From Microthyrium microscopicum (lineage: Eukaryota), in NCBI GenBank assembly GCA_010405405.1, contig MU004231.1, positions 4,204,884 through 4,268,883 of the forward strand: 64,000 bases of DNA, in the 5' to 3' direction. Made by a program: the position numbers and the translations under genes. Every line of letters starts with the position of its first letter. The stretch's first letter is position 1. Under the pieces are notes generated by a model that searched no databases, was not told the origin of the DNA, and saw only the letters and a list, made by a program, of their open reading frames with translations. This document shows positions 2,446 through 56,669 of this stretch, piece after piece.

Positions 2446-3929
2446 GATGTCTTCCGGCAAGCAAGAAGCGCTCGATACCAGGATGATGTTTAAATAGAGA
2501 GTCTCATGGCGACGGTAGTGACATGAAAAACAACAGACGTTTCCCCCAATGGGTTAGCTTCTGGCGTCGCTCGGGAGTTGGGCGGATGGTCGTTAGGTGG
2601 GTATTGTTTCGTAACTTTGGGTCGCTTGATGAGCAGTCTATGCGCGGCTAGATATTAAGATAGCAGAAAGACGCCAGATAATGCGCGCAAAATTAGAAAA
2701 TGGGAAAATTGGGAAGAAAGAAGATGGGAAAAGAGTTGAAAGTGACGATATGGTCTGGCTGGAGAATAGTAGCCAATGATTTGTCTGGTTGGTGGTTCAG
2801 AAACGGGCCTGCGCGTCATCATCGATCAACTTGAGATCCACCGGGCACTTGGCCCATTGTTCCTTTTGGAATCTTCTCACGCGTGACACGGCACCATCCT
2901 CTACCGTCTGTACTACTGATATCTAGACCATCTACTAGTATTTCTAGTCTGTGTTCATTGTGGAAGTGGAACTTCATCTTTTTTCGAGAGTCGAGAGCCC
3001 AGCACCTCCAAGATATAAAGTCACTTCGTTACCCGCATCACCCATGAGCCCTCTCCACCAGGTCAATTCATATATCAACCTAGCGTCTATCCCATCACCC
3101 TTGGAGCATATCAATAGTTCGAGCCATGCGCTGGATTGAACCATCAATTTGTATATCAGACACGTTATTGTACGACAGTAGAGCAATGGTCGCCCTCTCG
3201 AACCACCTCACCTTTCACTTGACGTCCACAAAACCATTGATATAACAAATGGAGAGAAATCCAGGCAAAGATGAACTCCGATTAGAACCGTGGTCATCAT
3301 CCTCGAGCGTTTTCTGTAAATATTGGCAGGCTTGCCGGCCGTATCGTTACACTTCTACCATCGATATATCCATCATAACCTGGCAAAATCTGGACGTGCG
3401 CTATCAATGTCCTTCAAATCGCTGACCGACCAATATAGATGTGGTACTTTCTTCGATCAATGGCTGCGATCCGCGGCAGATAGACCGCAGAGATCGATAC
3501 ATTTGTCTCTCAAATTGAGGACTACCCAGAATGCTCTTGTTCAAGTCCTCAATGAAGGAAGCTCCCTTCATCACTTGAGCAATCGAGAACCTAGAACGTC
3601 TGATCTGTGAAAGAGCACGAGTATCAGTATCAGGCTATCAGCGATCATTACTCTCATAAGCTGTGTTATTCCCTATTCCCGAATGTGGCATATGATTGAC
3701 TCCTATACACTGCAGACTTCACGGAGTCACTACCGAGCTTAAGACTACATTTATATCGAGTCAACGGCCATTCATACTTCCCAAATATCAGATTTCCCGT
3801 TCCTATATCCAGAAATCATTGACTCCCTACATTATAGGAAACCCACCCAATATACCACACCAACACCCCCCATACATCCATATCCCATCGCAAACCCACC
3901 TCTCCACCATCCCAACTTCTTCCACAATC

Positions 3930-5090
3930 ATGACCGCCAAACCACAACCACAACCAACACTCCCCCCTCTCCCCCTCCCCGCCACAATCTCCCAATCCTA
4001 CATAACCACCCCCTCCACTGGTCTAACAATCCACTACCTCTCCGCCGGCCCCCCTACCTCACCCACCATCCTCCTCCTGCACGGATACCCCGACCTCGCC
4101 TATTCCTGGCGCCACACCATCCTCCCCCTCGCAAACGCCGGCTTCCACGTCCTCGCGCCCGATCAGCGCGGCTTCGGCCGCACAATTGGCGCAGATACAA
4201 GGCCATGGAGACAAGTGGATGTTGGCAGTTTCACAATGACGAATCTGGCACGCGATATCCTCGCCTTCTTAAACGCGTTGGGCTTGAAGGAAGTGCATGG
4301 GATTGTCGGGCATGATTTTGGGGCCGTGGTTGCGTCGACGTTGGCGCTTGTGAGGCCGGATGTGGTGAATCGGTTGGTGCTGATGAGTCATCCGTATAAA
4401 CCGATCCCTGAACTGGACGAGTATAAGAACGCTACAGGCACGGCGGGACAGGGACCGGATATCAATGCGGAGTTGGCGGCGCTGGAGGAGCCACGGACTC
4501 ATTATCGCGTTTATAATTCTAGTGAGAAGGGCGCATATGATTGGGATCATCCGGAGCAGGGCGTTGAGGAGTTTTTGCGGGGTTATATTCATGTCAAGTC
4601 TGCGACTTGGGCGCGCAATCAGGCTGCGGGCACACTGGGCGCGTATACGGGGGCGGAGATGGCGAAGATGCCGGGGTATTATATCATGCCGCAGGGATCG
4701 AGCATGCCAGAGGTAGTTACCTCGTTGATGGTCGGCGAAGATCCGGATGCTACAAAGGCCTGGCTTAGTGATGAGGAGCTACAAGTTTATGCTTCCGAGT
4801 GGACGCGGACAGGCTTTCTGGCTGCTTTGACGTGGTATCGAGCTAAGACGGAGGCAGCGTATGCGGATGATATGGCGCTTTGGGCGGGTAAGGTGCTGAG
4901 TGTGCCAGTGGCGGTTGTATCGGGGAAGCAAGATTGGGGAAACTATCAAGAGCCTGGGGCGTTGGAAAGCATGGAGAAATTGCCGCATTTGAAGGGCATT
5001 ACGCTTATTGATGGAGCGGGTCATTGGCCGCAGCAGGAGAAGCCCGAGGAGGTGGTTAAGGGAATATTGGATTTTCTATCTAAGTGCTAG
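3930..5090 (+). CDS. Alpha/beta-fold epoxide hydrolase-like protein, single exon
   Basis: HGYP oxyanion motif, DQRGFG, GHDFGA (Asp nucleophile), WYR tyrosine, AGHW catalytic His. First ATG is at 3930; the ORF track start at 3696 is a TTG. Confidence 0.9.
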   Translation: MTAKPQPQPTLPPLPLPATISQSYITTPSTGLTIHYLSAGPPTSPTILLLHGYPDLAYSWRHTILPLANAGFHVLAPDQRGFGRTIGADTRPWRQVDVGSFTMTNLARDILAFLNALGLKEVHGIVGHDFGAVVASTLALVRPDVVNRLVLMSHPYKPIPELDEYKNATGTAGQGPDINAELAALEEPRTHYRVYNSSEKGAYDWDHPEQGVEEFLRGYIHVKSATWARNQAAGTLGAYTGAEMAKMPGYYIMPQGSSMPEVVTSLMVGEDPDATKAWLSDEELQVYASEWTRTGFLAALTWYRAKTEAAYADDMALWAGKVLSVPVAVVSGKQDWGNYQEPGALESMEKLPHLKGITLIDGAGHWPQQEKPEEVVKGILDFLSKC

Positions 5091-5319
5091 TACGGTATCT
5101 AGGCTAAGAAGTGTGGATTGTAAACACGACAAGAGGTAGGAGGAAGAATATCATGTAGCAGGAAGGAAGCATATAAAACCAAGAAGAGTATAACATTGTA
5201 GTATAAGCGCATGAGAATTCATAACCAAGCATCAAATTGATCGCTATAAATAATGACTTGACCAACAAGAATAATACAACGCTAAGTAATCAAAATTGGA
5301 CCATCACCACCACCATCTA

Positions 5320-7984
5320 TCAAGTTCGTCCAAAAAGGCGGCCAACACCTTGTCTCGCGTTTCTTCCAGCCCGTCCAGTGATACTATCCGCATCATCATG
5401 AGGCGCTGGAGTTGGGCGCTGTGGCATAGGTGGAGCTTGTTGTGAATAACGCGATCCACGCGCAGCTTCACGCTTGCTCTCTTCAATGGCGCGTTGAAGC
5501 TGTGCTTCTTCATCATCTGCGCTCGTGGGAGTTGCAACCTGGTTAGGCTCGCCGTACCCACTCACGGGTCGCTGCTGTTGACTTGACGACTCTGCGCTCG
5601 CATCGACATACTCCTCCGTCTCCCAGGCAGGAACGGATTTGCGCGCATATGACTCACCAGCAGCAAATGGATTGCGTACTGGAGCTGAAGCTGGTGGCGA
5701 CGCGGATCGGTGCGAGCCGAGTGAGAGTGGGCGATTTCGAGACGGCATATCATAGCCATGAGTGGAAAGAAGGGAGGATTCGCCTTGCTCATATGGGCCG
5801 AGATCAGGACGGCGGGCAATATCGCGGCAGATATCGAGACCAGATTCGAGCACGAATTCTTGGTCGCGGAGTTCGCGGCGTTTGGCGGCGGTGACGTTGT
5901 CTTCCTCCATGAGAGCTTTGACTTGGCCGTCAGAGAGACGGTGGACACGCTCGCCTTCGAAGATGTCCTCCATGCTGTCAATGAGATGGCGTTCAATGAC
6001 TTGGGTGATGACATTGGCAATGAATGCAGGAAGTTGATGCTAGGCGGTTATTAGTATGACAGAATCTAATGAGTGGGACGGATTGACTTACTTCATAGTG
6101 GAGCAACATCTTGTTTAGTGTGTCTTCGTATTTGTTGAGAGGGGAGGATTGCTCAGTGTTGGCCTTGGGCTCGGAGCGCTGAGCATAGTAGCTCTTTTCG
6201 AAAGAGCTGTGATATGTTCGCACGTTTCGGAAACGATCTTTCTTGAGTTCATTGAGCTCTTTTGCAGCTTCCTTGAATCGGTCTTCCATTGATTGTTGTA
6301 CAAAGCTTCTCCAAGCACGACTTCGTAGACGTGTAGGCCATGCATATGCCATGACTTCTGCCAAAAACTCTTCACAAAGATTTTGAACAATCTCCACATG
6401 CTTATCGGCCAGATTTGGCCATTTTGAGGAGTAAGATTGAAATAAACGATAGACCAAACGAGGGTTGATATCGACTGACAACTCCTGACCCGGATTGTCA
6501 CGAATTAAAGGTTGTACTTCTCGTTCGATAAACTCCTTGCGACTGATGTTTGGTGGTACGCTACCAGCAGGATGCTTAGACTTTGGAGGCGATAGTTGAG
6601 ATTGAGTCGCATTCTCCTTTATGATAAAGGCAGCTCCCCATTTCTCCATGTTGTCATCGAAAGCCTCGTTCATAATGACCACCCGGGATCTAAGATTTCG
6701 AGCAAACTTGCGCGATCGGTCATTGAATTTGGGGAAGAAGTCCTCTCCAAGTGGGTTGATGCCATGACCTTGAACAGCTTCTCGGGTGAGTGATCCAGAT
6801 CTTTTGCACAGACTCTGGAGTTCGGCTCTCATTTCTTGGATGGTGGTAAATCCAGGGCCAAGCTCCTTGAGTTTATCTTTAACCTGATTGAGTTGGCGCT
6901 CAATATCTCCTTGAACCTTGAAGACTTCGTTGGCGATATGTCGAATCAGCTGAGTGCTGAGCTTCTTGCGCAAAGCTTCCACACCAAGCTGACTAGCATC
7001 CAACTCCTGACCCCATCTTGAACTGGCAAAGTATTTCTTCTCCTCTGCATCACGTTGGCTAGTGGAAAATCCCATTTCATTGTGAGCACGATTCTTCAAT
7101 ACGTTCCAGCCGAGCTGGAGCCTGTTTCGTTCGTCTCGGTTGCAAGCTAGATCGATGAATTCGTTTTCACGCTCGGCAGTCAAGGTCATGTCGGGCTTCG
7201 TGAGTACACCCAAAGTTCGCATTCCCATAGGATCCGCTTCTTTGCATCGCCGAACAATAATTTGACGAGCATACTCGGAGTCGCAACCAACAATAGGTAG
7301 GATGATAGTCCGCTCCTTGTTCATGTAGAACTGGGAAAGATCCGAAATAGCTTCCACATCAGCCACTGTCTGGGTTCGGGTTGGATTATGGATTATGCCA
7401 GGAAGATCGACAATTGTCAAGTGTGGTAGATCTGGTCCATTTCTCTCGATGCTAAGAATATCTCTTGACAGGAAGTTGGTGACACCTCCTGAGAAGATCA
7501 GCTCAGTCGCACGTTGAAATATTTCGCCAAAGTCCGAGCCAGAGTCGATTGTATGCGCAAAAGACTCAAACTTTCCCCGATCTTTCTGCTTATGTGGTAT
7601 AATGCTGACTTTTGTGACCGTCTGCTTCAAGCTCGTATCGCGTCGTAATCGAATCTGGGTTGCGAATCTCGTGCAGGCAATGCTTGCTCGTGGGAAAGGG
7701 ATTTGAGTAATGGCTTCGAGTACGGAGGATTTGCCAGAACTTTGATCACCAACAGCAACGACTTGCGGGAGATCGATGAATTGATCCACGCGGCATTCTC
7801 GTAGTCTATCGATGAGATCTAGAAGTTTGGAGTTCTCCGCGTCGGTGCCTAGCGGTACTCTATCAAGAGTCGCTGACATTGCAGGTTGTGCCGCAGACTG
7901 CATATTGTATTGCTGTTGCGAGGGTTGTGCTGGATAGGCTGGTTGGCCATTCGTGTATTGTTGTTGGTTGTAGGCCATCGTCAT
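5320..7984 (-). CDS. Mx-like dynamin-related GTPase with GED domain and disordered tail; intron 6040-6091; start at 7984 or 7978
   Basis: G1 GDQSSGKS, G2 CTR, G3 DLPG, G4 TKPD. Splicing the GTAAGT..CTAAT..TAG intron joins 'LLHYE' to the GED-like 'HQLPAFIANVITQVIERHL' and continues into the 5320-5973 ORF. Confidence 0.9.
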
Positions 7985-9195
7985 AGGCACTTGGTGGCTG
8001 AAACGCACGAGCTTGCTGGACAGACTCTCAAGTAGAAGGTGTGAAAAGCTACTGCGAAGGACAACGGCAACGTCGATTTAAAAGGACGATGGTGAAGGTA
8101 AAGCGAAGGAAACCTCACCGGACTCCTGAAGGAAGGCTGGATATTTGAATGCGATCAGGCAGTGACCTCAAGCTAAAGTTCTGGCCCTGCACTGGGATCA
8201 AGTTGGAAGATCGCTGCTGCACAGCCTTACGCCACAACTCTGCGTTTCCACCGCGTTCGCCGACGTCGCGGTTGGTGGCAATTTCACCGAATAACCAGGT
8301 GGTTGGTGAAACACAGCCCACTGTCTGCACTTTTCACGCTGTTTCTACCTTTCAAACATAAATGCATACGATGCGTTTGAACTCAATGCCGAGCAACTAC
8401 TACTAATTCTATCCTCTTGATGGCTGCCTTCACTGGCTGACGTACACAGGTATCGGGACGTAGCAGGCTCAATGCAAAGTGCCATTGGGTACCAGGCAGC
8501 CGAATTCGCTGCTTTGATACTGGTACAGCCCTTTCAGACCAGTGAATCATATGAGGCGGCGACGCGTATGCCGCTCTTCAGAGATTGCGTCTTCGCCTAT
8601 TTCACTTTGCACTACATTTTGTGAAAACTGAACGTCAAAGTTGATATTTTGTAGAAGAAAGGGATGTACTATAAATAGACTTTGCACGTGTAAGGCTGCC
8701 AAGGCGTGAGGATACTGACGTCACATAGGCACATAGCCAATCACACCGCGCAAGGCTGAATATTCAACATCGTTGTAAGAGGTGGCTCCGTGCTGCTTCT
8801 CAGGATCTCATAGACTACTATCGTACTATATTCAAATCTTATTGCGAGGTGACTAGCTTCCCAGAATGAGTGATCATGAGAGGAAGGCAGGCATTCAGTG
8901 CTCCTACCGAAGTCTGATTATATGCTCCCCCCAATCTTCATGCTCAATGTTCCGGTACACACTACATGTATTGGTGAAAATGCTCGCTAGCTTTGACCCT
9001 ATCATTGGGGACTCTCTCAATGCTGAGGTACCGTTAGAAATTCTCAGTTTCCCGATACAAAGTCCCAAATAAGAATTGCCTAAATAGGAAAGTCCGTTGA
9101 CTTTCCATACAAAGTTGGTACCTTTTTGTGGGTAAATATCCTCAGCTTTAGTCTATTGCAGATAAAGGTTTTAGTACACCTGAAACGCTGCTATC

Positions 9196-9716
9196 CATTT
9201 TTGCAATAATTTACGGGACCTAGGCACATTCCAGGCCGAGCCAGCAATGAGCATTTCAGACTCGTTGCCAATGACAATGGAAGAGGAGGCGATGGTATGC
9301 GATTCCACGATTCTTCCTTTCGAGGCTAGAGTAGCCATCGCGCATCGAAATTTACATATGCGACTTCGAAGAATTCAGTGTAAGGTCTCGAGACAGCCTC
9401 TTGATATTGTTTTTCAGCTGTGAGTCACAGGATGGCAAGTCAAATGAACAGATTTAGCTTGTCTTACTTCCAGTCCACTGGTACTGTTTAGTCAAATAAC
9501 GGGATGCTGCGGAGAAATTCTCCGACCTCGTGGTGTAGCGGATTTTCTGGATCAGCTTATCAAAGTCTGGTGGTAGAATGGACCCTTCTCCTTCAAATTT
9601 TGGTATTTAGAAACCTGGCATCCTAAAGAAATTATTAGATTTGAGTCAGCGTTCAAGTCCGGTACCAGCTCTATTGGTACCTACCTAGGTAGGTCCCGTA
9701 AAAGCCTTGCAGAATG
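9196..9716. repeat. Imperfect 27-bp inverted repeats about 520 bp apart (possible MITE/foldback relic), with a 16-bp perfect palindrome at 9679-9694
   Basis: TTTACGGGACCTA (9210-9222) is the exact reverse complement of TAGGTCCCGTAAA (9690-9702); the flanks CATTTTTGCAA / TTGCAGAATG extend the match imperfectly. ACCTACCTAGGTAGGT is self-complementary. Confidence 0.4.
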
Positions 9717-11941: not shown

Positions 11942-14466
11942 CTAAGCAGCATTCTTGCCAGTGGGTCCACCGCCATTGCGGCGACTGTCATCAATATTGA
12001 GCGATCCAAGTCCTGGGGTAAGGAAGCTGAATGGGTCATTTGGGTTTTCGTATCCGGCAGAACCACCGCCATTGGAGAATCCGCCAGGCTGGGGGCCACT
12101 TGGCTGATTAGCACCTGGACCGGCATTGCCGCCAGGTGCAGCTCCAGAGAACGCAGCTTCCGCGCGCGAGTCAAATCCGGTGGCAGGTGGAAGACCGCCA
12201 GCTGGTCCTGCAAATCCACCCATAGGGTGAGGATATGGGTTTGGTCCGGAGGGCATGCCATAGCCTGGTGGTCCGAAAGAAGCAGCACCTGGGAAACCGC
12301 CATGGTTGCTTGGAAATCCACCTGGGCCAGGCATTGGGGCTCCCATTGGGCCAGGATGTCCACCAGGTCCAGCAGACGGGTCATGTGGTCCCATACCAAA
12401 TGGAGGTGGATAAGCTGGCTGAAACTCGTTGATGGTCGGTCCATTGGATACGTGAGCACCGGAGCGAGAAGCACCGCACCGCAGACAATTTACGTTCTTG
12501 GCGAAATTGTGATACAGGCAATCTTGCTGGCCGCAGCGCCAATCACCGGGACGAAACGGGGCCGATCCACCAACACGATGGTTCGCATGGCCACCAGGTC
12601 CGTAAGAAGGCATGAATTGGGGCTGCGGGTTGTATCCGTAGCCATATCCTCCTCCCATGTTAGGGTCGCTCTGTCCACCGCCAGCTGACATTGCCGGGTA
12701 TGAGCATCGGAAGCATTGAGTACGACGTTGGAAATTGGAGAATCCGCAGGAAGGGCAAGTCCAATCACCTGGGCGAGGGCGATTCTTGGATGGCGGGAAA
12801 GGAGTCAAAACTTCAGCGGCACGGTCCAAGACGTGATGAGAAGACGGAGAGACCTCGATGGCCTTCTCACTCAGAGCACGACCGTTCATGCATAGGGATT
12901 CGGCAGCCTTGGAGTATTAGAGGGTAAAGAGCAACATGCATAGAAAATTACTTACCTCTTCATGAGAAGAAAAGATGGCAAATCCAGAGCCAGTTGGTTT
13001 GTGCTGGTCAGGAGTTCTCATTGTCCAAAACGCAATTGGACGTCCACCATATTGAGTGAACCAGCTTTCCAGTTCGGACTGAGTAGTATCGTGAGGCAGT
13101 CCACTCATGAACAGCACCTTAGACCGTTCAGCCAGGAAAGAACGAACGTCAGCTCGAGCGTCGAAAGGATGCATTAGGACGTCGGGATGATCGTGATGAG
13201 GTTGTGATTTTTGGACTAGACCTTTGAGAACACGAGCGAGAGTAATGGCCTCTTCGAGAGCGCGACGTGGCGAAGCTGGTGCTAAGGCTTGCAAATGGAA
13301 TGGAAGATTGTGTTTGATTGGTGGCGACGTTTGAAGCGGCTCAACCTCCAGAGCAGCACAAATGTTTGAGAGGCTTGAGGCTCCAAATGGAAGAGATTCT
13401 GGATGATACACCTGCCAGTGTGTGTATTCAATTTTAAGGTCAAAGAGCCTCGAGTGCTGAAGGTAGGCTGGAAGAACCACCGCTTTATCACGAGCCTCTC
13501 GCGGGAGTTGAACGCGAAGGTCCCAGTTCTCGAAAGTCACAAAGACAAACTCGCTGTTGCCCAGTTTCTCGCTGACGAATTGGTCTAACCTTGTAATAGC
13601 CTCTCTGAACGTTCCAGCGTTACGGACGTTGTCCCAGGTAAGGGTAGTCAAGGACGCTGTTTGATGTTAGCAGCTGAGTTGATGGTGGCTTTGATGGGAC
13701 AAAATCGAAACGCAAGGTCTGAAGAGAGTGTATGGAACCAATTTAAAGGAGACGATATTTGGAAAAGAAAGGTGTAAATGACAAGAGGGGGAGATATTTT
13801 GCGGTGAAGTGGGTATGAAATCATGGGTCCTCAGCAGCTCGGCAACCTGCTGTTCTAAACAGGCAAGACTATTACACCCTCTCGTATTATACACAATGGA
13901 GCTTCTCCTTTCAGAAGCGGCATACATACCGCCCGAGACGTATGGCCGCATATACCAGGTACTGCAGTATCCAGTACTAGTAGGCATCCAAGCTTCTTGC
14001 CGAGCACTGCAGGCACCCGATTGACAGATATAAAGAAAACGGGCTTTCAAAGTGCAACAGGAGCGGTATAGAGGCGGGAGGAATGGTGGACTAGCGGGAG
14101 CGTATTGTTCTTGGGAGGGGTTCGATTAGGGGCAGTACTCACTGCATAGAGGTGTGATGGGAGTATTCATCGGCTTAACAAGAACACTCTCTCGGTATTT
14201 CTGAACAGGAACATTGAGTATCAGTTACAGAGCCATATACGGGGTGGCAGGGTGTATGAAAACTTTTCGAAACTCACCTCGTCCAGCGTCTTAGCATCGA
14301 CCAAAACCCATCCAATTTCGATTACTTCGGCAGAGTCTTTCGTGACATATACCCCGTGTTCATCGCAGGTCGTGGCCACATGAATAACTAGATAGTTGTC
14401 GACATTGTTAGGAACCACCGGTACAGGAGCTCCTGGCTTGCTGGTTTGCTGTTGTGAGCTGGCCAT
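11942..14466 (-). CDS. NRP1: Nrp1/ARP-type RNA-binding protein (exonuclease-like N-domain, RRM, two RanBP2-type zinc fingers, G/P/N-rich tail); exons 14466-14278, 14200-14143, 13656-12956, 12907-11942
   Basis: 'YLVIHVATTCDEHGVYVTKDSAEVIEIGW', RRM 'SKVLFMSGLPHDTTQSELESWF..GSGFAIF', fingers 'RPGDWTCPSCGFSNFQRRTQCFRC' and 'RPGDWRCGQQDCLYHNFAKNVNCLRCG'. All three introns keep the frame. Confidence 0.88.
13819..14022 (-). ncRNA. Candidate structured intronic RNA element in NRP1 intron 2
   Basis: Long-range stem: sense GGGUGCCUGCAGUGCUCGGCAA (14018-13997) pairs with UUGCCGAGCUGCUGAGGACCC (13845-13825), including 9 perfect pairs. Internal hairpins GCGGUA-UGUA-UGCCGC, GCUUCU-GAAAGG-AGAAGC and CUGUU-UAG-AACAG. 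Folded by eye only. Confidence 0.4.
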
Positions 14467-26643: not shown

Positions 26644-27740
26644 TCAGAACCGGAGGGCCGTAAAGTCCAGAGGAACATCATCGCTCGGTTCGTCACCCTC
26701 CTCCATCCATTTCTGGCCATTGGCCTGCTCCTCGACTGGAAACACTTCTCTTGCATACTCTTCCATCGATCTGTTGCCTTCCCAGAGTTCAATCGCAATA
26801 GCTGTGCAGTTTGGCTCCAGGTCTGGTCCGAAATATGGAGCTTGTTTGTCACCAAGAACTTCCTCAAGTATGGCCAGATGGTCTCGGTAGCCTTGCGGAA
26901 TTCTAATCTTGATGTCGATTGGTCCTTGCACGTATTCCACCGGTCGATTCAGAGCTCTGCTAAAAGCAGCACATACCTGTCGTGGAGTAAGGTATTCGAA
27001 TGCAATTGGGATTTTCTGACCGCCCCATCTCGCTGGTCCATCTTTGAAAAGTTGCAAAACGACTGGGCCAACGTCGTGTTCTGCGTCTAACCAAGGAATT
27101 GGCACGTCCGGGTGGAATGGAGCTTGCCATTCGAAGCTCTCGTCATCTTGAAGTGCCATGTTGAAAAGCGGATATGGTAGGCTGGTGAAGTTGTTGTGGT
27201 AGGTGCCACAGTAAATGAAGGTCGCGGGAATTCCAGTCGATTGTATGTATTTCTCAACTTTGAACTTGTTGGCCCAGAGAGGCAAGGCTTTCCATCCGTA
27301 GCCAAAGGAGGAATGATCGGGCATACTGCTGTAAATGAGATGTTTCACACCTGCTCTAATTGCAGCATTGACGATCGCTTTGCCGATAGCAAACTCGTCG
27401 CCCCAGTGCGTTGTGTTGATGAATGCCACGTCCACAGGCTCACTGAAGAGTTTGTCAATGACTGCTTGATTTCCTAAAAAGCCTTCAATGACAGTGACAT
27501 TGTCGAGGCTGGAGATGTCCTGGGCAACGATACTGATGCAATCCTGCATATGTGCTCGAACCTGCTGCAATGTTAGACTACCACCAATTCTTCATTCTAT
27601 GCTAGATAATTGGAGACTCTGGCCCAAGCATTTTGGCTGAGTAGGAAACGTACCTTCCATCCTACAGCAGCTGCCACACGGGTGAAGCTGGCGGCCTGCC
27701 GACCAGATGCATTGACCGTGGCGACTGTTATTCTCTTCAT
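26644..27740 (-). CDS. nmrA: Nitrogen metabolite repression regulator NmrA/NMR-1; intron 27653-27562 (alternative in-frame ATG at 27827)
   Basis: 'NASGRQAASFTRVAAAVG', 'AFINTT', 'YSSMPDH', 'NNFTSLPYPLF', 'PWLDAEHDVGP' and 'MEEYAREVFPVEEQANG' closely match Aspergillus NmrA / Neurospora NMR-1 as I recall them. Confidence 0.92.
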
Positions 27741-27911
27741 ATAGTTTGATTGTGCTGCACAAATCTCGCCAGAATCAAACGACTGACGCAGGGCACCGAG
27801 TGGTGGTGTTGGTTGAAGTAGAAGCATTCAATCCAGGTGCTGAGTAATACTCTTAAAGTATCTCCGAGACTTTTCAGCGCTCCCGCCGTCTGGTGAGTTG
27901 ACGCTTCCTAT

Positions 27912-28351
27912 TTGCGCAATTTCGCCAAATTAGGCAGTTGCGATCAATTGTCAATGCCTTGACCCGTTTTATTGATTCCTATCTCCACCAGTGTTTGAGC
28001 TTGACAGAATTGACAGAATTGTCAAAGAATGGAGACTGTCCTGTTTTCTGGAACCGATGCAGAAATAGTTTTAGATTCGTACCACCCCGATAAGCATCCA
28101 AGACACTATCAGGGCCAAGGTAACCTGTAAAAAGTAATGCCTGGCACTTTTAGCAGACTTGGATGAACTGCGCGGTTGGGAAGTGTTATCTAAATAAAGT
28201 CGAATATGAGCAGTATGACTTTCCGGTTTTAGATGATTGTGTGAAAATAGTTCATTGATAGACTTTGGCGTTGTTGATGGCGGAAAACCACAAGATGTTT
28301 GGAATAAAACAGATTACGGTAGAGGTAGGCAAACAAAGAATCGTAAGATAA
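27912..28351 (-). promoter_or_regulatory. nmrA upstream region with six HGATAR sites, a TTGCGCAA palindrome and TGACA repeats
   Basis: CTATCT 27979, CGATAA 28088, CTATCA 28106, TTATCT 28186, TGATAG 28256, AGATAA 28346; TTGCGCAA 27912-27919; TTGACAGAATTGACAGAATTGTCAA 28001-28025. Confidence 0.45.
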
Positions 28352-29953
28352 AATATGATGATGACCAGCCCTTCTTAAAGTATCAGGTTACACGAGAATT
28401 GGCGCGATGACTAAATGGTAAGCCAGAGCAATCAAGGCCGGGTGACCACGAATCCGCAAGGTTAGATGAAATCATCTAATGCTGCATCGTGTTGTCGGAA
28501 TCGTAGAGTGTGTGCAGCGGAGGCTCATCATCAGAAGAGAAGACGCAGTAATTGCGAGCAAGTTGACGATGTCACGCAGCGACAGTGTCCAGCTAGCCAT
28601 TACCTAATGTATTGGCATATAGCACGAATGGAGACTCGCCTTGCCGACGGGCGAAGAGCAATGGCCCAGGAAGACTCATAACCACAGCTCAGATGGTGTC
28701 TTCGCCCTTTTCTCTGCACGTCGGTGTCGGTAGACTTCTAAGGCGCCAGATTATACAGGTACTTATTTAGCTTGAGATCCTGCCCAGCCTGCCTTGCCTG
28801 CCCATGTGGTTGTGCTTCACCGCGTTGTTCCGAAGCACTGGGATTGGTGAGACTGGGCTGGCTATCACTGCTACAAGATTACCGATTGGGCTTTGATGCG
28901 GAAAGGCATTTTGCGTCCGGCAAGAAGCAAACCAGTGGATTCGAGTGGATATCCACAGAACATGCGGTGATGGAGGGTGGTAGAGCTGGAATTCCTACAA
29001 ATAATAACGGTTCGTTTGTTATGCCATGTCAGATATGACCCGAATTGCGAAATTTTCGACATGACGTCTGGTGCATATATGACAGCGGTTTCCCGTCTTT
29101 AGTGTATAGTACATCGGCTATCCTAGGCAGAATTCGGTAGGGTGGTACCGAGCGCGTGAATGTAGAGGTAGAAGTCATTGATCTTTGGTCATAAAAATCA
29201 GAACAATGCAGGCTAGTAGTACTTTGAAAAGACTTTTCTAGAAAGTTTATGGTTTTGGATTTTTAGGTAGATTGAAACCATGAGACATTCATGCACAATC
29301 CATGCTAGCGGCTTGCAAACCGAATTTACTTTGGTCACAACATGTCGCATAGGTCGATCTATCTTTCATCAATCTCCGCGGAGCCTAGGCCTTGTGGGTA
29401 AATATGTAGTCCAGTTGTTCACCACGTGTTTATTTGACGTTGAAAATCCAGAAAATGCCAGTAGGGTGCGTCTGCTGGCATCAAAGTTCAAGAGAATGAT
29501 GTTTGAAGGGTTGCATGACTAGACCATTCACCAAGGGCTGACCAGGCACGTTGATAACTTGATCCAGGCAGTTCGGATAAGAGATAACAACATATGCATA
29601 GCCTGACGTCTGGCCTGGACCCTGAGTGGTTGAGCCTCCACCGCTGGATCAAAGGAGAGATCCGGGGAGAGCTCTAAATGGTCTGGGGATATCGGTTATG
29701 CATGCCCCAAGATAGGTAGGCATATGCTGATAGCCAATTCTCTGCGCACTACTGGGCTCCTTTACATTGACACTCCTTTGGCTCCATGTTGGCTAGAAAA
29801 CGTTATCAGATTCACCAGTTTCCATAGCCACGAGACTTGCGTCCACTACTCTGAGACTTGCCTTACTAGTCCATCATATGCTGTTGTTTCTTTTCTCTAG
29901 AGGATATTCTATTGATCAGTTCATGTTGTGTATGAGCAAAATTCAGACAACTT

Positions 29954-32027
29954 CTAATCAGTCCCCCGAGCCACTGCCCAACACTCCTTAACAACCTCCG
30001 ATTTCGTGTCAAGATCTGGCTTTGCCAGCTCATCGGGATGAAGATGTGCACCAGCATTGGCTAACAGCACAACTTGATCTTTAAGGCCAGAGGTTGCGGC
30101 AAGAAACAGTGGCGTATGCCCTTCTCGATTTCGAAGATGGACAGATGCACCTTGCTCGAGAAAGTCTCTCAATATCTCGACGTTTGGTCCAGTTGCGGAA
30201 AGATGCTAAAACAAAAGTTAGCGTTTTCAAAGCAAGTTAATGGGCAGGAAGCAAGTCTTACCAGCGGAGTATTTCCGGAATAATCTGCATCGTTCAGCAA
30301 GAACTTGCCATCACCTCTCATAACATCCTTGGCGGCCTGAAGGTTTCCGTCTCTTATGGCGTAGCCTAGTGCTGTCAAGGAAGTTCGCTCAGGAGTCAGA
30401 GCACCACCAGGATCTGAATGTCGTTTAGTATATGTTATCGGATCCATTTGAGTTTACTCACGAGTGAATTGTGTTTGAGAAAGTTCAGTGAGCTCTCCAC
30501 ACAATGATAAGCCCATCTGCGCCGATACTTCAGCAGGCGTTAAGCCAGGCAAGGACAGTAAGTAGGACAGTTTTGTCAAGGCCGCCTCAGTGGTCATGTC
30601 ATATCCAAGCACTACACCAACTTTGCTGAGTATGAAGCCTACATCTCATCAGTTTCGCAAAGCTCATTTAGGAACAGACAACTTACCAGACGCATATAGT
30701 GGACTGACGCTGCCGCTGAGGCATTGAGTCACGTTTACGATGACGATTCCTCGTTGAACACCTTCTGATAGGACACGTGTCAGAGCAGAATCCGGGCCGC
30801 CAGGCGTGTTTCCTGCACCGAAGGTTTCTAGAATTAGACCTTTGAGTCCTTCAACTCTTAGGACGGCATCTATCATTTGCGGTTTGATACCTAGCAGATA
30901 TTAGCATGGGCATTTCGAACAATGATGAGGAACACGAACCTGGAAATATCCGTAATGCCGCGACATGGCTTGTGTCGAGTCTAGTCTTGATGGAAAAGGG
31001 ATGTAGTTGCGTAGAGCGGTAGACATTTCTCCAATTGACTTTAGTTTGTTGTGATGTGATAGTTGCTAGTGGTTCAAAATTGGGACTCGCGAATGCAGCA
31101 AAGTCGTCTGCAGATACTTTGGTTGTTCGATTACCTGTAATTCTATTAATATACGACTTACTAGAATCAAGCTTGACTCTCTTACCGCGGTATAGCTTGA
31201 AGTTGAAGAACAGACAAACCTAGCTACGTTAATGCAGTGTTCTGCCAGGAAAACCGAACCAGCTGTCATTCTAGCTGGCCTACAGGTAATAATAGATCTT
31301 ACCTCAGGAATCATAAAGTGTCCAGCAATGATCAACGAGCCTAGTAGATTGTCGGATGCATCTGATTGTAGCTGGACCATAGGTGCTTGAGATCCCGTCA
31401 ATATCACTGGCTTGCCGAGATCTTGAAGCATGAAGCTCAAGGCAGAGCTAGTATATGCCAGCGAATCCGTGCCGTGAAGAATGACAAAGCCATCGAATAA
31501 CTGGTAGTTGCGATAGACCGCTTTTGCGATTTGGTCCCAACCTTCGGCATCAATGGAACTACTATCCAAGAGATGTTCAAATTCAAAAACAGCATACCGC
31601 ACTCGCCGCTCATACGCACTGATTGGAGTTCTGAGTGACTGGACAGCTTTACGCGTGCCATTATCGTCAACTACAATCTCTAGTGGCTCTGGATATGAGC
31701 CATCGTTGAACGATGGTCGGGGAGCTAGTCCGAATTTGAGAAAGTTTCGAGCCTGTGTCTGAATTAGCATCCCATCTCGGCATCTGCATGAGCGCTCAAG
31801 TGGTAGACAGGGATTAGTGTAGGTACAAGAGCAAGTTGGGTTGTTATGCAAGGCTGATCAAATCCAACGTACAGGAACTAGACCATCTTCAGACTGTTTC
31901 ATGCAAATCGTGCCACCTGTCGCAAAATTTAGCACGATAGCTTCGTTACAAACAAGGCCAACAAACCTGTGATGATGATAAGCACCTGTGATTCTGGATA
32001 GTTGAAATCGGGTATTAGGTGTGCCAT
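29954..32027 (-). CDS. Type I L-asparaginase / 60-kDa lysophospholipase-like protein with C-terminal ankyrin repeats, multi-exon
   Basis: ATG 32027 'MAHLIPDFNYPESQVLIIIT|GGTICM', 'LDSS', 'GFVILHGTDSLAY', 'PVILTGSQ', 'ETFGAGN', 'VTQC', and ankyrin motifs 'DYSGNTPL' and 'GHTPLFLAA'. Confidence 0.9.
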
Positions 32028-32764
32028 GACTTCTCAGTGTTGTAGTATGATATCAAGGCTTGTGAGGTAGCAAGATGTCAAAAGTAGTAGACAGAAAAAA
32101 GAAAAAGCAAGCGGAAAGCCGTTGGCTCCCGTAGCTGTCAATAAGGCGGAGACTTTGAGACTCGTTGCTGAATCGTCAAATGACAGGATGCAGACTTCTT
32201 GGTGAGGTGTAATAGCGGTGAGCCAATCGTTGAATCGAATGTTTTTTCAAGACAGAATACCTTAATCTGACAAGTTTCTCTTTGTGTTGTATATCGATGT
32301 GAGGCTATAGATAAGGCACATCCCTTTATCAGTACATTCGCAAGCCGGTGTATTACCCGAATGTCAGGTTTGCAGACACTTGCAGGTCAGAAATTTTGCA
32401 GTGAAGAAACTTCAAGTAAATCTTGTTCTCTTTCACTTGTTGTAAGGGTAATTCCAACAGGTCAAGTCAATACACGAGAGTGGATATTTGGTGGCGGAAG
32501 AAGTTCTAGTGTGTAGAGGTAGATTACCCCATAGGAACCACAAAAAAATCGTGATATTGGATCCGTGGTTTTGGTATGGTCCCAAGACCTTGGTTCACCT
32601 TGAAATTTTCTCACCAATCATTCACGATTTAAGGAAGGATTCAAAATGTCTGAGAAGAATTTGAAGAACGCAAGCTGAAACTCAAGCATTGCGGCTCCGA
32701 CTTTACCCTGTTATTGAGAATTTTCAAAGAGAAGAAATGTCGGTTGGCTATGCATTAGCGCCAT

Positions 32765-33318
32765 TCATGTATCTCTTGCAAGAATGTCTTCTACAACTTT
32801 GAGTTTCTCAGCAAAGTGTTGAGTCTTATCGGTTCTCGTTCCAATTCTGATGCTGCTATGTACACGAACCTAGGTAGTTGTTTCAATTAGAACTAATGAT
32901 ACACTTATTGTCAAGAGTGAAGGAAAAACTCACAATTCCATTCTGATGAAGCATTTCGTGAGCTTGACCAATAACTTTGGTCACATCATCCCACGATCCC
33001 TCTATTATTCTATTAGTCTCTTTCCACCATACAGAGCAATGGCAGACTTTGTGAGCACGGAGTAGTATTGCTTAAAATCATGTAGCTAAACGACAGAGTG
33101 TAGAGTCAATCGCTAGGTCATGATGTCTTACCAACTGTCGTTCCCGCAGAGTGCAAGTGATATTTTAGACCTGACTGCTTCAACAGGCGTTGGACTTCAG
33201 CGACTTCTTCAGAAACTGAAGCTGTTGCTGTCCCCATGGGAATGAGGCAAAAGTCTGCGATACAATGTGACGGAGTAGGGATCGAGGAGGTGTCCGAGGT
33301 GGCACTTGCAGTCGCCAT
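32765..33318 (-). CDS. ECM15: UPF0045 / thiamine-binding (Ecm15-like) protein; introns 33131-33002 and 32933-32870
   Basis: Spliced product 'CIADFCLIPMGT..SVSEEVAEVQRLLKQSGLKYHLHSAGTTVEGSWDDVTKVIGQAHEMLHQNGIVRVHSSIRIGTRTDK'. Confidence 0.88.
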
Positions 33319-33576
33319 CTTCTCTGATGCTTTGATTGATTCTACTTGATCTACACCAAGCAAAATTGACTTGAATGAACGGAGGAAGTTGTTGAGCAGA
33401 AGACTCAGAAGTGATGCAGAGAAGTTGGAAGTGAAAGACGCGACTGTTTGCAGGTCTTTCACGCGTGGTGGCATGACGCCACTTTTCCCCTTCCTTTAAG
33501 ACGACTGAAGAGTTCCTTCATCCCAACAACATCATTTTGATCAAAATACAGGTGGTGTCTCGGTACAAGGACGATC

Positions 33577-34842
33577 ATGAGCATCCCAGTTCTGGAAAAA
33601 TTCTACGAAGTCCCAACTCCATCTGTAATCGCGAGTGTGCATGAAGTGGAACGGCCAAGGGGAGGCTTACGTCTTGGTGAAGCGCAGGAAAATTCTGAAG
33701 ATGTAGTCCAGGTGGAATTGAGATACATTGCTGAGGGAGCAGCAAATGTAATCTTTTCCATTGAAATCTTGGGGCATGCGGGAAAGAGCAAGGAAGACAT
33801 ATCACCGCTATGTCAACGGCTGGAGGGAATGCTTTTGCGCCTCAGAAAGGGGTCTCAAGCTCTGCCAAACATTCAGGAAAATCCGACTGTGCCTCCTCCG
33901 CCTTTTGTACCAGCGCAAGAGATTGTCAAGTTTATCAATGAGCGTTTGCCTTGGTCACTAACTCAATCGTTCATGGTTGTCCATACCCTGATTCAAATAC
34001 AGCCTGAAGTGCTTCAGCTCTGCAATGCGCTATTGATGACGTTGGAAGCAACAAACAAGCGTATCTCCAAACGAAGAGGCTGGTATTTGAGTGCCGAAGA
34101 AACGCATGGTATCTTGGTCACTGACATGCGACCCCAAAAAGAAGGGGACATCACAATTGAGTTCAAACCGAAATGGCTTGAACAATCTCCAATGGCCCCG
34201 GATGGAGCACGCCGCTGTCGTACCTGTGCATGGCATGTCAAGAACGGTGTAAAAGCCAGTAAAAGGTATTGTCCTTTGGCAATTGCTTCTCTCAATCGCC
34301 CGCAGAAGCGAGCACATATTGCGAAATTCGTACCCAAGGCAGATTCTTTGCCCGATGGCTGGGACTACGAAACTGTGCTGAACGAGTTCACATCATATTT
34401 CTGTGATATAGACAGCGGCCTTCAACTGCTGAACAGGCTTCGAGCTGCCCAAAAAGAATACGATCCTGATGGAGCTTTGAGCGCAATTGGAATTTCAGAT
34501 GACAATTATAGCCCCGAACCTACCCCAGAGTTGCTGGAACTCGTGGACTCAGCGCTACAAGATTCTCATAACCATGGTTTTCTACGACTCGCATGTGCCA
34601 TGACGCTTAGAGACTTAATCATTTTTGCCCGTCTGTCAAAGGCGAAGACCGTTGATGCTGTATGTATAGAAGGTAGGATTGCCGATTTGGATTTCAAAAA
34701 GGTGGAAGCCGAGAAACTCTTGAAATGGGCACTTGACGAAGCAACTTTGCTAAGAGGAGGATATTATATGGGCACTGAGAGCAGATCCGATTCTGACACT
34801 GCAACAAAGGGCGATATATGTTTCTTATGGCAGCAAACATGA
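33577..34842 (+). CDS. IPK1: Inositol-pentakisphosphate 2-kinase, single exon
   Basis: 'YIAEGAANVIF', 'LLRLRK', 'EFKPKWLEQSP', 'CRTCA', 'YCPL', 'MTLRD' and 'ADLDFK' motifs of Ipk1. Confidence 0.88.
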   Translation: MSIPVLEKFYEVPTPSVIASVHEVERPRGGLRLGEAQENSEDVVQVELRYIAEGAANVIFSIEILGHAGKSKEDISPLCQRLEGMLLRLRKGSQALPNIQENPTVPPPPFVPAQEIVKFINERLPWSLTQSFMVVHTLIQIQPEVLQLCNALLMTLEATNKRISKRRGWYLSAEETHGILVTDMRPQKEGDITIEFKPKWLEQSPMAPDGARRCRTCAWHVKNGVKASKRYCPLAIASLNRPQKRAHIAKFVPKADSLPDGWDYETVLNEFTSYFCDIDSGLQLLNRLRAAQKEYDPDGALSAIGISDDNYSPEPTPELLELVDSALQDSHNHGFLRLACAMTLRDLIIFARLSKAKTVDAVCIEGRIADLDFKKVEAEKLLKWALDEATLLRGGYYMGTESRSDSDTATKGDICFLWQQT

Positions 34843-34866
34843 GTTTCGCTCCACCCGACAGCAATT

Positions 34867-35698
34867 TTATGCACCTTTGCCACCTTTGCCAGCAAGCGCT
34901 GAAAGCTGATCCTTCGTTCCGCCCAACATAACTCCAAGCTCAGACAACGCCGCCTCGTTCGCAGCAGTCGCCTTATCCTTCTCACCACCATTGGGACTTG
35001 GCTTCGGCCCAGCCTTTCCACCCGTCTCGAGCTGCTTCTGGATATACGCCACACTATCGCTAATCCACGGATTCTCAACATATACCAAGTGATCCGCCAC
35101 CTTTGTCCCTGAGCCCGTACACACTGGATCACCCGGCGCACAATTCTCCATCAACTTCTCCGCCAACTCTTTTGGCAGCGGCGGCACAGTTCCACCCAGC
35201 GGAGACCGAACATTTGGTCCACGATTTCCTGGATCTCCAAACAACACAAATCCGATCACGCGAGGATACATATCGGCCTTGAGTTGTACGGAGGCTCCGT
35301 GCATTACATCGGCTCCTTGGCTGTATCCTACGAGCACGTACTTCTGGTCTGGACACGTCTTGCTTTGCGATTCGAGGTGGGCGACTACATCGGCGGCGCC
35401 TTTGACTTTGCTGTCGAGGGCGAAGCTGGCGGGATAGTTGACGGCGTAGCCGGTGACTTTGGGGTCTTTCTTTTGGAGGGCGTCGAAGAGGGGGTCGCCG
35501 ACGACGATGCCGTAGGGTGATCTGGGTTCCATGGTACCGCTTGCTGGTGGTGAGTTAGCTTTTGGTAGGCGAAGATGCTTCGTGTTTCTTACCGATGATC
35601 AATTCGAGTGGAGAGCAGGCGGCAGACGAGACATTAGCCGTTGGCGCTGCCCATGTGGCATGGGCTAGCGCAATTGATGTTGCGAGATGGCGAAGCAT
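34867..35698 (-). CDS. Secreted cutinase (CE5); intron 35592-35544
   Basis: Signal peptide 'MLRHLATSIALAHATWA', 'CSPLELII|ASGTME', 'VNYPA', GYSQG nucleophile, 'LFGDP', 'CAPGDPVC', and catalytic His in 'DHLVY'. Confidence 0.9.
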
Positions 35699-36161
35699 AT
35701 TTGAATCTAGAATGTGCGAAAAGAGTTGTTTGTGGACTCAGACGCAACCAAACGAAAGAGTGAAGATTGGAAGCAGAGGTCATCGTAGGTAGTAGCTGAT
35801 TCACATGAGCTTACGAAAGCAAATTAAAGCCGATTCGTAAATTGCACTAAAAGCACAAACCATCTGTCTTCATGCCGAATTAGATCATCTACGAAGAAGC
35901 TAATAGCAATAACATAAAAGCTCGGCTCAGTTGTTGGATCGCCAGCCCTGGATACCAGATGAGGAATCCAATTCGAAAATCAACAATGGTTGTGGGAAAC
36001 TTTCATGTTCGAAGATGACATCTTCTGATTGTCATTGTGTAGAAGCAGTCTAAATCATTTGATGATATTGTAATTGTATTTTACTTTATATGCAATGGGT
36101 AGTATTCAAACACCAATGCGGTCCACCATGTTTTCTTATATGTACAACAACTCGACCATTC

Positions 36162-38206: not shown

Positions 38207-38726
38207 GTTGGTTCCGTGGAGTAGGCGGGGTTCTCGGAGGTACTGAGAATCCCGATGCAGAATTATGATGGATAAATATACTTGTGATGAACCAGATGGC
38301 GAGTCTGGAGAACCTGAGTCCCTCGGGAGAGGTGGAAAAGGTACATTGATGTTGGATGCAAAGAGGACGGAGTCGAGTTGAGTTGCTGAGTCGTCGTCAC
38401 CACGTGGAGACTGGGCAACCTCGTCAACTCCTCAATTTCGAAGCTTGATCTGTTTCCAACACCCTTAATGTTACTCTAAACTGTTGCTTTTCTGATTGAC
38501 AACGTGTCAAGCATGACTTCAATCGACGCGCAAATAAGCGGTTCGAAATCACTTTTTCGCGGCTTTGAGAGTTAAGCTCAACGCGTTTAGTGACGGAAGG
38601 CAGTTGGAGATATCACATCTATCAGTTATTCTCTGCAATAAATATTAGAGTAGTTCTCTAGTAGGTGATCAGTACAAGTTTACAATCGCTAATTGGGCAT
38701 TAGTCATTCTTCTATTGTGTATAATT

Positions 38727-41033: not shown

Positions 41034-41947
41034 TGGCCAGATCTTTACACCACTTGAAATATTCCTGCTGCTAGAAAAAAGTATAAAGAATGAACTGCTT
41101 TCCAGCTGCTCAGATAGTAGCCATGATCGCGGGTGGAACGGGCGAGGGGAGAGCGCTAGGGTTGTATAAAATTGACAAAGAGATCTAAGCGTTTGCTAAG
41201 GATTATTTGAAAATGGGTTGGCCAGACCCGGTAAACGTGGGCACGCAAGGCACTTTACTTTGACCTGTTGGCATATTTTTGGTAGCACGCAAGTGGCATT
41301 TATATTGTGCCGCAAAAGGTGCTTCGGGGCTGGCGAACAGGAGTTTGCGGTTGGATCCGATCGTTGTTTCAGACTGATGAGTTTCTGGGTTGACGAATGA
41401 TAATGGTGGAAAATATGTTTCATAAGAGTACTATTTGCCAATCGACAAGACCAGGCACAATAGTTTGAACTGCTGGTGTCGGTGCGCAACACTTTGTTGT
41501 TGACCGCGATTGGAATTAAGATCAAGTTGCTTACTCTCAACCATGAAAATAAACAAACCTTACCAAAACAGTCGAGTGTTCGTTTGGATTCTGAGACTTG
41601 GCATGGTTTGGACGGTGGGATTTTGAAGGATGATTTATCGCATGGAGGATTTGATCCTCGATGTCAGTTGGTGGTAGAGTAAAACGTAAGGACACTTTTG
41701 AAGATAAACGAAACTTGAGTATAGAAAAGAGGTGTGGATTATTTAGTCGTAGACACAAGGTAGTGTGTTCCTACCTTATATGCATCAGCCTCAAGAGAAA
41801 TAGGAACAAAAGAGATGGGTATCGCCTAGAATCAGGTGGTCGAATACAACATTACCGTCCTGCTGACCCGTATCGACTCGTAGCAGCAAATGGTTTTGAC
41901 CTTTTCCATCATAGACGATCATGAATCATACCAAAACAACGCTTTGA

Positions 41948-56476: not shown

Positions 56477-56669
56477 TCTGGGAGTTGAACTTGTTGTTTG
56501 GCACGAACGGATGTAGGTGGTGAGGGTTACTCGAACATTTCAAGAGGAATTTGAAGAACAGTAAATTCTTGTGGGGTTAGTATCTGGCAGGATGAAGGAC
56601 TGGTCGTCCAAGAAAGTCATTAATTCGTGATTGATGTGGTGGTGAGTATAGGATCTGCCTGTTGCATGG

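Follow-up and report, generated by a model that had tools for sequence, protein, structure and literature searches.

We analysed a 64,000-nucleotide stretch of the Microthyrium microscopicum genome (GenBank assembly GCA_010405405.1, contig MU004231.1, positions 4,204,884 to 4,268,883 of the forward strand; hereafter the window). A two-exon gene on its minus strand, at 7984..5320, encodes an Mx-like dynamin that ends in a flexible tail carrying three kinds of conserved motif: a helix resembling the ubiquitin-interacting motif (UIM), an [ND]PF tripeptide, and a class II SH3-ligand-type motif, PxΦPxRP. The SH3-ligand-type motif recurs in nearly all full-length relatives sampled, and the UIM-type helix and [ND]PF mark one clade. 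The gene product is identical to ‘hypothetical protein BT63DRAFT_422012 [Microthyrium microscopicum]’ (hereafter P0003). A preliminary description, made from the DNA letters, had singled it out as an Mx-like dynamin with an epsin-like endocytic tail. We propose, with a probability of roughly 0.45, that the tail, as an epsin/Eps15-like motif array, recruits this Mx-like GTPase to endocytic or endosomal sites rich in ubiquitin.

A translated tail with conserved motif islands

Reading the minus strand of positions 4800-9500 together with its stop-to-stop frames gave a single gene of two exons. Its parts are listed here alongside a 5045-nt contig from a public run, X1.

5320..7984, minus strand: complete coding region of the gene for the Mx-like (MxF-type) dynamin; product identical to P0003; the X1 contig covers 5000-7983
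7984..6092, minus strand: exon 1, 631-residue product (P0002)
6040..6091, minus strand: intron of 52 nt, GTAAGT...ACTAAT...TAG, with GT..AG ends and an ACTAAT branch site; junction in the X1 contig
6039..5323, minus strand: exon 2, 239-residue product (P0001); stop codon at 5320-5322

The spliced translation is 870 residues long from the first ATG (7984), and the NCBI/JGI model is 868 residues long from the ATG at 7978. P0003, at 868 residues, is accordingly an exact suffix of the spliced translation, offset by 2 residues.

The tail is part of the translated protein. The X1 contig has no differences from the window on 5000-6039 and 6092-7983, and it joins 6039 directly to 6092, skipping exactly 52 bases with CT..AC ends on the plus strand. 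Spliced RNA would yield just such an intron-free contig, which puts the tail in frame and within the translated protein; that runs X1 and X2 are RNA is a guess, and we used only the X1 junction, not its depth. Proteins of relatives carry the same junction. Three of them (P0123, P0124, P0130) read straight through it as ‘...LLHYEHQLP’ or ‘LLYYEHQLP’, and the unspliced gene calls of seven others show intron read-through, with V and a few junk residues following ‘...LLHYE’ (in two, ‘...LYE’). Without splicing, the frame ends after 32 codons and the GED is lost. The preliminary description had let its tail stand or fall with the splicing of 6040-6091, and both the contig and the relatives' proteins show that splice.

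Two further observations concern the ends of the gene model. The X1 contig stops within the first ATG, at 7983, and a contig from run X2 reaches 8093; the start candidates are 7984 and the annotated 7978. The X2 contig spans 7691-8093 and derives from a relative that is 95-99% alike; its adapter-like loose ends are mutually reverse complementary and resemble a cDNA-synthesis primer. Some relatives (P0013, P0015, P0018, P0014) apparently have a second intron directly after the GED, following ‘...RPDLGP’. Gene calls of three relatives continue past ‘DLGP’ or ‘DIGP’ with V and a few junk residues, and in P0014 an in-frame insert of 16 residues after the GED probably represents a retained intron. 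Microthyrium lacks an intron at this position.

Downstream of the GED, exon 2 encodes the following elements:

5323..5790, minus strand: C-terminal tail, P0003 residues 713-868 (~156 residues), of low confidence in the AlphaFold2 (AF2) model and likely disordered
5665..5673, minus strand: NPF, candidate EH-domain ligand; in relatives [ND]PF, often after PxLPVR (motif counts in 19 tails)
5623..5646, minus strand: island ARKSVPAW (consensus RKPV..W); R133, K134, P135 and W139 at least 90% conserved in alignment A2, mean identity 0.50
5464..5517, minus strand: UIM-type helix DDEEAQ-L-QR-A-IEE-S-KREA, that is DDEEAQLQRAIEESKREA (Pfam UIM; predicted helix 5446-5520)
5413..5433, minus strand: PPMPQRP, class II SH3-ligand-type motif (PxΦPxRP); conserved columns P832, P835, R837 and P838
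5323..5343, minus strand: extreme C-terminal basic/hydrophobic motif GRLFGRT (consensus RRRGLFGRG), from conservation in A2

The predicted structure of the tail is simple. Model confidence (pLDDT) lies below 50 at residues 713-802 and 825-868, and the single secondary-structure element in 713-868 is a helix at 803-827, with pLDDT 58-72, which is the UIM. Counted from the end of ‘ICRDI’, the tail is 165 residues long, close to the disordered segment of about 170 residues originally described.

We compared this tail with those of its orthologues. The set of 19 orthologue tails comprises 10 full-length proteins and 9 exon-2-only gene calls; a twentieth orthologue, P0132, ends before the tail and is not among them. 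Proteins of this clade share 63-84% identity over exon 1 and 58-81% over their whole length, and the column numbers of a 10-sequence clade alignment, A2, are used for the tail islands (e.g. L181). Across the 19 tails mean column identity is 0.50, and clear islands rise above it. The preliminary description had asked for the motifs to be sought as conserved islands in an otherwise divergent tail, and this is how they appear in the 19-tail alignment. Searching for longer proteins with the exon 2 product returned six matches, all already in our set. An ESM Atlas look-up of the tail gave no usable match by features; its structural rows (TM 0.23-0.33, unrelated families) were set aside as meaningless for a disordered tail.

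The UIM-type helix is the most constant element of the clade. The UIM consensus is an acidic run followed by Φ-x-x-Ala-x-x-x-Ser-x-x-acidic, and the Microthyrium sequence matches it residue for residue, with the core LQRAIEES at 5476-5499. The string DDEEAQLQRAIEESKREA, previously placed at about 5466-5518, lies in the minus-strand frame at 5464-5517. A UIM is found in 19/19 orthologue tails, in the same register and at one aligned place, where the island reads ‘[T/P]PT[ST]AE-EEDEDL[KR][KR]AL EES[KR][KR][ED]’ or ‘DEDAQLQRAIEESKRE’. Eight positions are invariant in A2 (E177, L181, R183, A184, E186, E187, S188 and R190), among them the Leu, Ala and Ser of the consensus, so that the UIM proposed from one sequence proves to be conserved in its clade. 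Identity within the island is 0.77, against 0.50 for the whole tail.

The UIM regular expression arose in 19/2000 shuffles of this tail and in 10-33/2000 shuffles per orthologue tail. Among 273 fetched proteins it matched the 19 clade tails and seven sequences elsewhere; five of those seven matches fall in the protein body, and the other two (P0118, P0231) lie 40-65 residues from the C-terminus without the clade motif. The Pfam UIM profile (PF02809) aligned over its full length, 1-17/17, at 14.8 bits and E 0.026, against a gathering cut-off of 21. The HMM scan thus returned the expected domain in full but below its threshold; because the model has only 17 positions and all of them align, the shortfall is one of score and not of a missing residue. 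Whole-protein Pfam scans (E up to 0.05) reported a UIM in 0/6 outgroup proteins.

Known structures point the same way. A 36-residue piece around the helix, searched against 177,635 PDB sequences (E ≤ 10), matched two entries, both UIM peptides: ataxin-3 (2klz, 0.064) and Vps27 (1q0v, 0.57). A profile of the tail matched four PDB chains, three of them UIMs (1q0v, 0.079; 1o06, 1.7; 2klz, 3.3). The Microthyrium helix shares with these Vps27 and ataxin-3 UIMs the acidic run and the L-xx-A-xxx-S pattern; unlike them it is present in single copy, not in tandem, and the E-values linking it to them are weak. Given its sub-threshold Pfam score, we call the element a UIM-type helix, its membership of the UIM family being unproven, and suggest from its residue pattern that it may bind ubiquitin.

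The SH3-ligand-type motif reaches far beyond this clade. The core of a class II SH3 ligand is PxΦPxR, and the PPMPQRP first noticed at about 5410-5435 lies in the minus-strand frame at 5413-5433. In this one tail a PxxPxR is not significant by itself, arising in 203/1000 shuffles. Across the clade, however, PxxPxR occurs in 18/19 tails against 3.9 expected, and the longer form PxΦPxRP follows the UIM by ~8-15 residues in 15/19. We extended the comparison to 81 full-length relatives, namely those of at least 780 residues among 120 listed, which share 34-81% identity over their whole length (alignment A1). A PxxPxR lies within the last 120 residues of 80/81, usually in the form PPPPPRP; shuffling predicts 16.8. 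Beyond residue 709 the only columns of A1 conserved at 90% or more are P832, P835, R837 and P838.

The form PxΦPxRP is also present in proteins whose source names are Fusarium, Trichoderma and Pyricularia, and PxxPxR is found in only 3/90 of more distant representatives (50%-identity representatives of at least 700 residues). This putative SH3 ligand is thus a hallmark of the whole Pezizomycotina subfamily sampled. The earlier statement that typical fungal Mx-like proteins lack the motif set is borne out for the UIM and [ND]PF and fails for PxxPxR, given its presence in 80/81 relatives.

The third motif is conserved in a looser form than was first described. An RNPF string had been reported at 5665-5673; the string is present, but that range covers NPF only, and RNPF spans 5665-5676. 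NPF arises in 5/1000 shuffles of this tail. It occurs in just 7/19 tails, with DPF in 9/19 and one tail holding both, so that [ND]PF is found in 15/19 where shuffling predicts 0.7; some tails carry it twice. Two of the DPF motifs stand at the aligned place of NPF; the others are shifted by 1-2 columns or occupy an upstream site. What is conserved is therefore [ND]PF and not NPF itself. Within the Microthyrium subgroup [ND]PF is fused to a second SH3-type motif, as P.LP[VI]RNPF, and in M. microscopicum this second motif has decayed (PASAPVRNPF).

The four tails without [ND]PF include that of P0014, which has NPF at residues 4-6. An N-terminal NPF (MT(A)NNPFRD...) is seen in P0013, P0014 and P0015, the tails of P0013 and P0015 being cut off. 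In the P0014 lineage the motif may have been relocated to the N-terminus rather than lost.

Taken across the orthologue tails, this conservation means that all three motifs are more than chance. Conserved islands lie outside these motifs as well. At the extreme C-terminus, F236 and R238 are invariant in A2, and R230, G231 and L235 are at least 90% conserved. The end is conserved family-wide (P0003-P0122), as RRRGLFGRG in the clade and as RKILGRG or R..LA.AMR.G in relatives with Sordariomycete names (also ...MRMG..). Directly before the acidic run of the UIM, at 5518-5535 on the minus strand, lies a conserved TPT[ST]A[ED] island, its Pro unchanged throughout A2; it resembles a target of proline-directed or acidophilic kinases and could tune the UIM. 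Other motifs sought in the 19 tails were absent or rare: F.D.F 0, W..[FW] 0, LIR-like 0, clathrin box 0 and PY 3.

The distribution of the motifs suggests a simple history. We built a FastTree phylogeny of 127 rows from the first 720 residues only, so that the tail trait was excluded, leaving out rows shorter than 600 residues and three of every four of the near-redundant P0061-P0122. The UIM clade forms one branch of 18 rows with SH-like support of 100, comprising 10 UIM-bearing full-length proteins and 8 truncated calls. Its sister group (support 90), which includes proteins named Geoglossum, Bisporella and Cladonia, has a UIM in 0/3 known tails. Both FastTree support values and midpoint rooting are weak guides. 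The simplest history is that of an old SH3-ligand tail to which a UIM and [ND]PF were added in one lineage.

An Mx-type GTPase body

The protein that carries this tail is a dynamin-superfamily GTPase with a large G domain, a middle/stalk region and a GED/BSE:

7196..7762, minus strand: GTPase (G) domain with GDQSSGKSS, DLPG and TKPD motifs; Pfam Dynamin_N matches the exon 1 product at residues 75-263 and passes its cut-off (E 5.9e-28)
6764..7126, minus strand: Pfam-matched part of the dynamin middle/stalk (Dynamin_M, E 4.1e-16); stalk helices continue to ~residue 654
6695..6769, minus strand: predicted loop between stalk helices, P0003 residues 404-428 (no regular secondary structure in AF2)
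5839..6021, minus strand: GED / bundle-signalling helix (Pfam GED at 18.5-19 bits, just short of its 21.4 cut-off; AF2 helices 614-704)

P-loop residues are invariant across the 81 sequences of A1. The AF2 model, built on the same alignment, has a mean pLDDT of 77 and a confident body at residues 40-712, in which stalk helices span 333-654 with pLDDT mostly above 85. Between the stalk helices the model has only loops and no PH domain, and a Pfam scan found nothing beyond dynamin domains and P-loop look-alikes, with no PH domain or transmembrane segment. One stalk loop is itself conserved: G404, F414 and F415 are invariant among the 81 relatives, and N408, P409 and G411 nearly so. As a conjecture, we regard the loop at 404-428 as a candidate membrane- or target-contacting loop.

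By both sequence and fold ranking against the PDB, the protein is closer to Mx than to the Dyn/Vps1, Drp1/Dnm1 or Opa1/Mgm1 groups. A phmmer search of PDB sequences gave 43 matches, with Mx1 (1.4e-33) and Mx2 (2.4e-31) best and Vps1 (1.7e-23), dynamin-1 (1.6e-21), Drp1 (~1e-17) and Mgm1/OPA1 (~1e-15) weaker. Foldseek placed MxB in its top two positions (5uot, 1.3e-24; 4whj, 3.4e-23), followed by dynamin-1 and MxA; its alignments to full-length MxB, MxA and dynamin (E 1e-24 to 1e-20) cover ~670 columns. These rankings agree with the first assignment of the gene as an Mx-like dynamin, and relatives carry the source name ‘interferon-induced GTP-binding protein Mx’.

How does the protein compare with its better-known cousins? 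Like the classical dynamin proline-rich domain (PRD), its tail is a disordered post-GED segment with PxxPxR-type SH3 ligands, here family-wide. Unlike classical dynamin, it has one or two PxxPxR motifs instead of a long PRD, it has no PH domain, and its GTPase body is closer to Mx. Fungi, to our knowledge, lack a classical dynamin with PH domain and PRD.

With fungal MxF and animal Mx1 and Mx2 the protein shares a G domain, BSE and stalk and the lack of a PH domain; it departs from MxF as described in its ~156-residue post-GED tail with UIM, [ND]PF and PxΦPxRP. The fungal Mx-like dynamins were named MxF (MxF1, MxF2) and are called uncharacterised in the text of Langley et al. 2025 (PMC11789081). 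In the main text of that paper the words ‘ubiquitin’, ‘proline-rich’, ‘tail’, ‘PRD’ and ‘SH3’ have 0 occurrences, and the taxon names we searched for do not appear in the available text of its supplement. Among the open-access papers searched, mostly assessed from titles and opening abstract lines, we found no dynamin-family protein with a UIM, nor a description of a post-GED SH3-ligand tail in fungal Mx-like proteins.

Proposed role of the tail

NPF/EH, UIM and SH3 ligands co-occur in fungal endocytic adaptors (the epsins Ent1/2 and Ede1/Eps15). A proline-rich domain recruits classical dynamin, and the tails of epsin and Eps15 work likewise. Following these precedents, we propose that the flexible post-GED tail acts as an array of short linear docking motifs. 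It would present one or two [ND]PF motifs as ligands of EH domains or adaptor ears, one UIM helix for ubiquitin, a PxΦPxRP ligand for SH3 domains, and a basic end. Individually weak, these motifs could jointly concentrate the GTPase where ubiquitinated cargo, EH scaffolds of the Ede1/Pan1/End3 type and SH3 proteins coincide, which in fungi would be endocytic actin patches or ubiquitin-sorting endosomes. Once there, stalk-mediated oligomerisation and GTP hydrolysis would act on the membrane or coat. Partner binding by any of the motifs, the cellular site and an activity on membranes are what we infer from this comparison, and the ubiquitin sensing and the recruitment to endocytic or damaged membranes or to viral targets that the preliminary description had suggested stand on the same footing.

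The likeness to endocytic adaptors has clear bounds. As in the C-terminal regions of epsin (Ent1/Ent2) and Eps15/Ede1, the tail is a disordered array of UIM and NPF/DPF motifs. Unlike those proteins, the Microthyrium product has no ENTH or EH domain and a single UIM, and its array sits on a mechanochemical GTPase and not on an adaptor. The phrase ‘epsin-like endocytic tail’ therefore suits the tail's resemblance to epsin and Eps15 but not the protein: with no clathrin box, ENTH or PH, it is neither an epsin nor a classical dynamin.

Several observations weigh against recruitment to ubiquitin-rich sites. Scores of the UIM fall under the Pfam gathering value in every protein scanned (14.4-17.7 bits against 21), the whole-protein scans (E up to 0.05) report it in just 4/10 clade proteins, and the UIM look-alikes in the PDB have E-values of only 0.06-3. 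NPF and DPF have different preferred partners; given the N/D exchange, the site may not be an EH ligand. UIMs also serve cis-regulation. Of the UIM-clade tails, 18/19 come from metagenome or assembly records, and one member is from a named organism. A clathrin box is missing from all the tails (0/19), Pfam finds no ENTH, PH or other lipid-binding domain, and the gene neighbourhood offers no functional hint. Animal Mx proteins, moreover, are described in the text of PMC11789081 as acting independently of membranes.

The conservation of the UIM would serve cis-regulation just as well as recruitment. Coupled mono-ubiquitination of UIM proteins is known for Eps15, Hrs and epsin. On such a model the UIM binds ubiquitin and directs coupled mono-ubiquitination of the GTPase, leading to its turnover or auto-inhibition rather than to cargo recruitment. 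The conserved, phosphosite-like TPT[ST]AE island before the UIM and the Lys/Arg-rich stretches after it would fit a regulated module of this kind. Set against it, a PY motif for an Rsp5/Nedd4-type ligase is not conserved (3/19 tails), and the conserved [ND]PF and SH3 ligand beside the UIM go unexplained. We consider cis-regulation unlikely as the main role of the tail, while noting that it and recruitment are not mutually exclusive.

A different possibility is that the tail looks inward. The charged helix and the C-terminal motif could bend back to the G domain, BSE or stalk and, as an intramolecular regulator, control assembly, the likeness of the helix to a UIM being incidental. The extreme C-terminus is conserved, with F236 and R238 invariant and similar ends family-wide, and there is a precedent in Drp1, where a disordered six-residue C-terminal short linear motif (SLiM) is described as exerting allosteric control (PMC10761769). 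What the two share is a conserved disordered motif at the extreme C-terminus, here RRRGLFGRG; the sequence is different, and in our protein it lies ~160 residues beyond the GED. AF2, however, leaves the helix and the C-terminus undocked, free and at low confidence, and an exact Φ-xx-A-xxx-S with flanking acids in 19/19 tails is more specific than a generic amphipathic helix. On balance this reading is a long shot.

The kinship with Mx raises the further prospect of defence or quality control. In place of endocytic sites, the GTPase would assemble on ubiquitin-coated objects such as mycovirus replication sites, capsids or damaged organelles. Its closest relatives by sequence and fold are the antiviral Mx1 and Mx2, the UIM is conserved, and MxF copy number turns over in a manner that the authors of PMC11789081 read as a possible arms race. 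Yet the tail islands and the whole protein are strongly conserved within the clade, which looks unlike an arms race (positive selection was not tested); the presence of [ND]PF and PxΦPxRP suggests the endocytic housekeeping machinery; and we found no mycovirus link in the open-access literature. We hold this role to be improbable.

The same idea can be put as an evolutionary step, and in that form it strikes us as no less doubtful: one fungal lineage's Mx-family GTPase would have gained a UIM, aiming a GTP-driven, self-assembling coat at ubiquitin-tagged objects such as virus replication sites, capsids or damaged endomembranes. If true, fungi would have in such a ubiquitin-guided Mx their own counterpart of ubiquitin-directed, GTPase-based cell-autonomous immunity. 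PxΦPxRP, present family-wide, would then be an ancestral handle tying all Pezizomycotina Mx-like proteins to SH3 scaffolds.

That the array is an artefact, either chance motif matches in a low-complexity tail or a tail outside the protein, can practically be dismissed: the shuffling result for PxxPxR alone (203/1000) and the sub-threshold Pfam UIM speak for it, but the splice junction is present in a public contig and in relatives' proteins, and the motifs stand at aligned places in 15-19/19 tails, against 0.7-3.9 expected for [ND]PF and PxxPxR and ~1% per tail for the UIM.

Neighbouring genes and significance

The genes around the dynamin gene are unrelated housekeeping genes:

3696-5090, plus strand: convergent α/β-hydrolase gene, ending 230 bp from the dynamin stop (Abhydrolase_1, 7.8e-27)
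11945-13666, minus strand: adjacent frames that probably belong to a single spliced gene, encoding RanBP2-type zinc fingers (4.9e-17) and an RRM (2.5e-07)
26647-45328: NmrA-like, asparaginase, inositol-pentakisphosphate 2-kinase, cutinase, LCCL-domain, MFS transporter and DUF7702 genes, all ordinary fungal genes
49557-56539, minus strand: class II-type myosin heavy chain gene (Myosin_head, 4.5e-252; Myosin_N; coiled-coil DUF7491)

Among the neighbouring open reading frames scanned (at least 130 residues up to 24 kb and at least 150 residues beyond), we found no functional cluster and no ubiquitin gene. The X1 contig continues for 2113 bases beyond position 5000 into the α/β-hydrolase region, so that the assembly merges the region of both genes.

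These results give the MxF family its first concrete handles. One is a near-invariant SH3-ligand motif after the GED in the relatives sampled, those with source names being Pezizomycotina; the others, in one subclade, are the added UIM-type helix and [ND]PF motifs. Provided that these motifs engage the kinds of partner typical for them, the result would be an Mx-type GTPase connected to ubiquitin-dependent sorting in endocytosis or at endosomes. Such an arrangement, if true, would parallel the recruitment of dynamin by its PRD and would bear on the ancestral role of Mx-like proteins, in membrane traffic or in defence.

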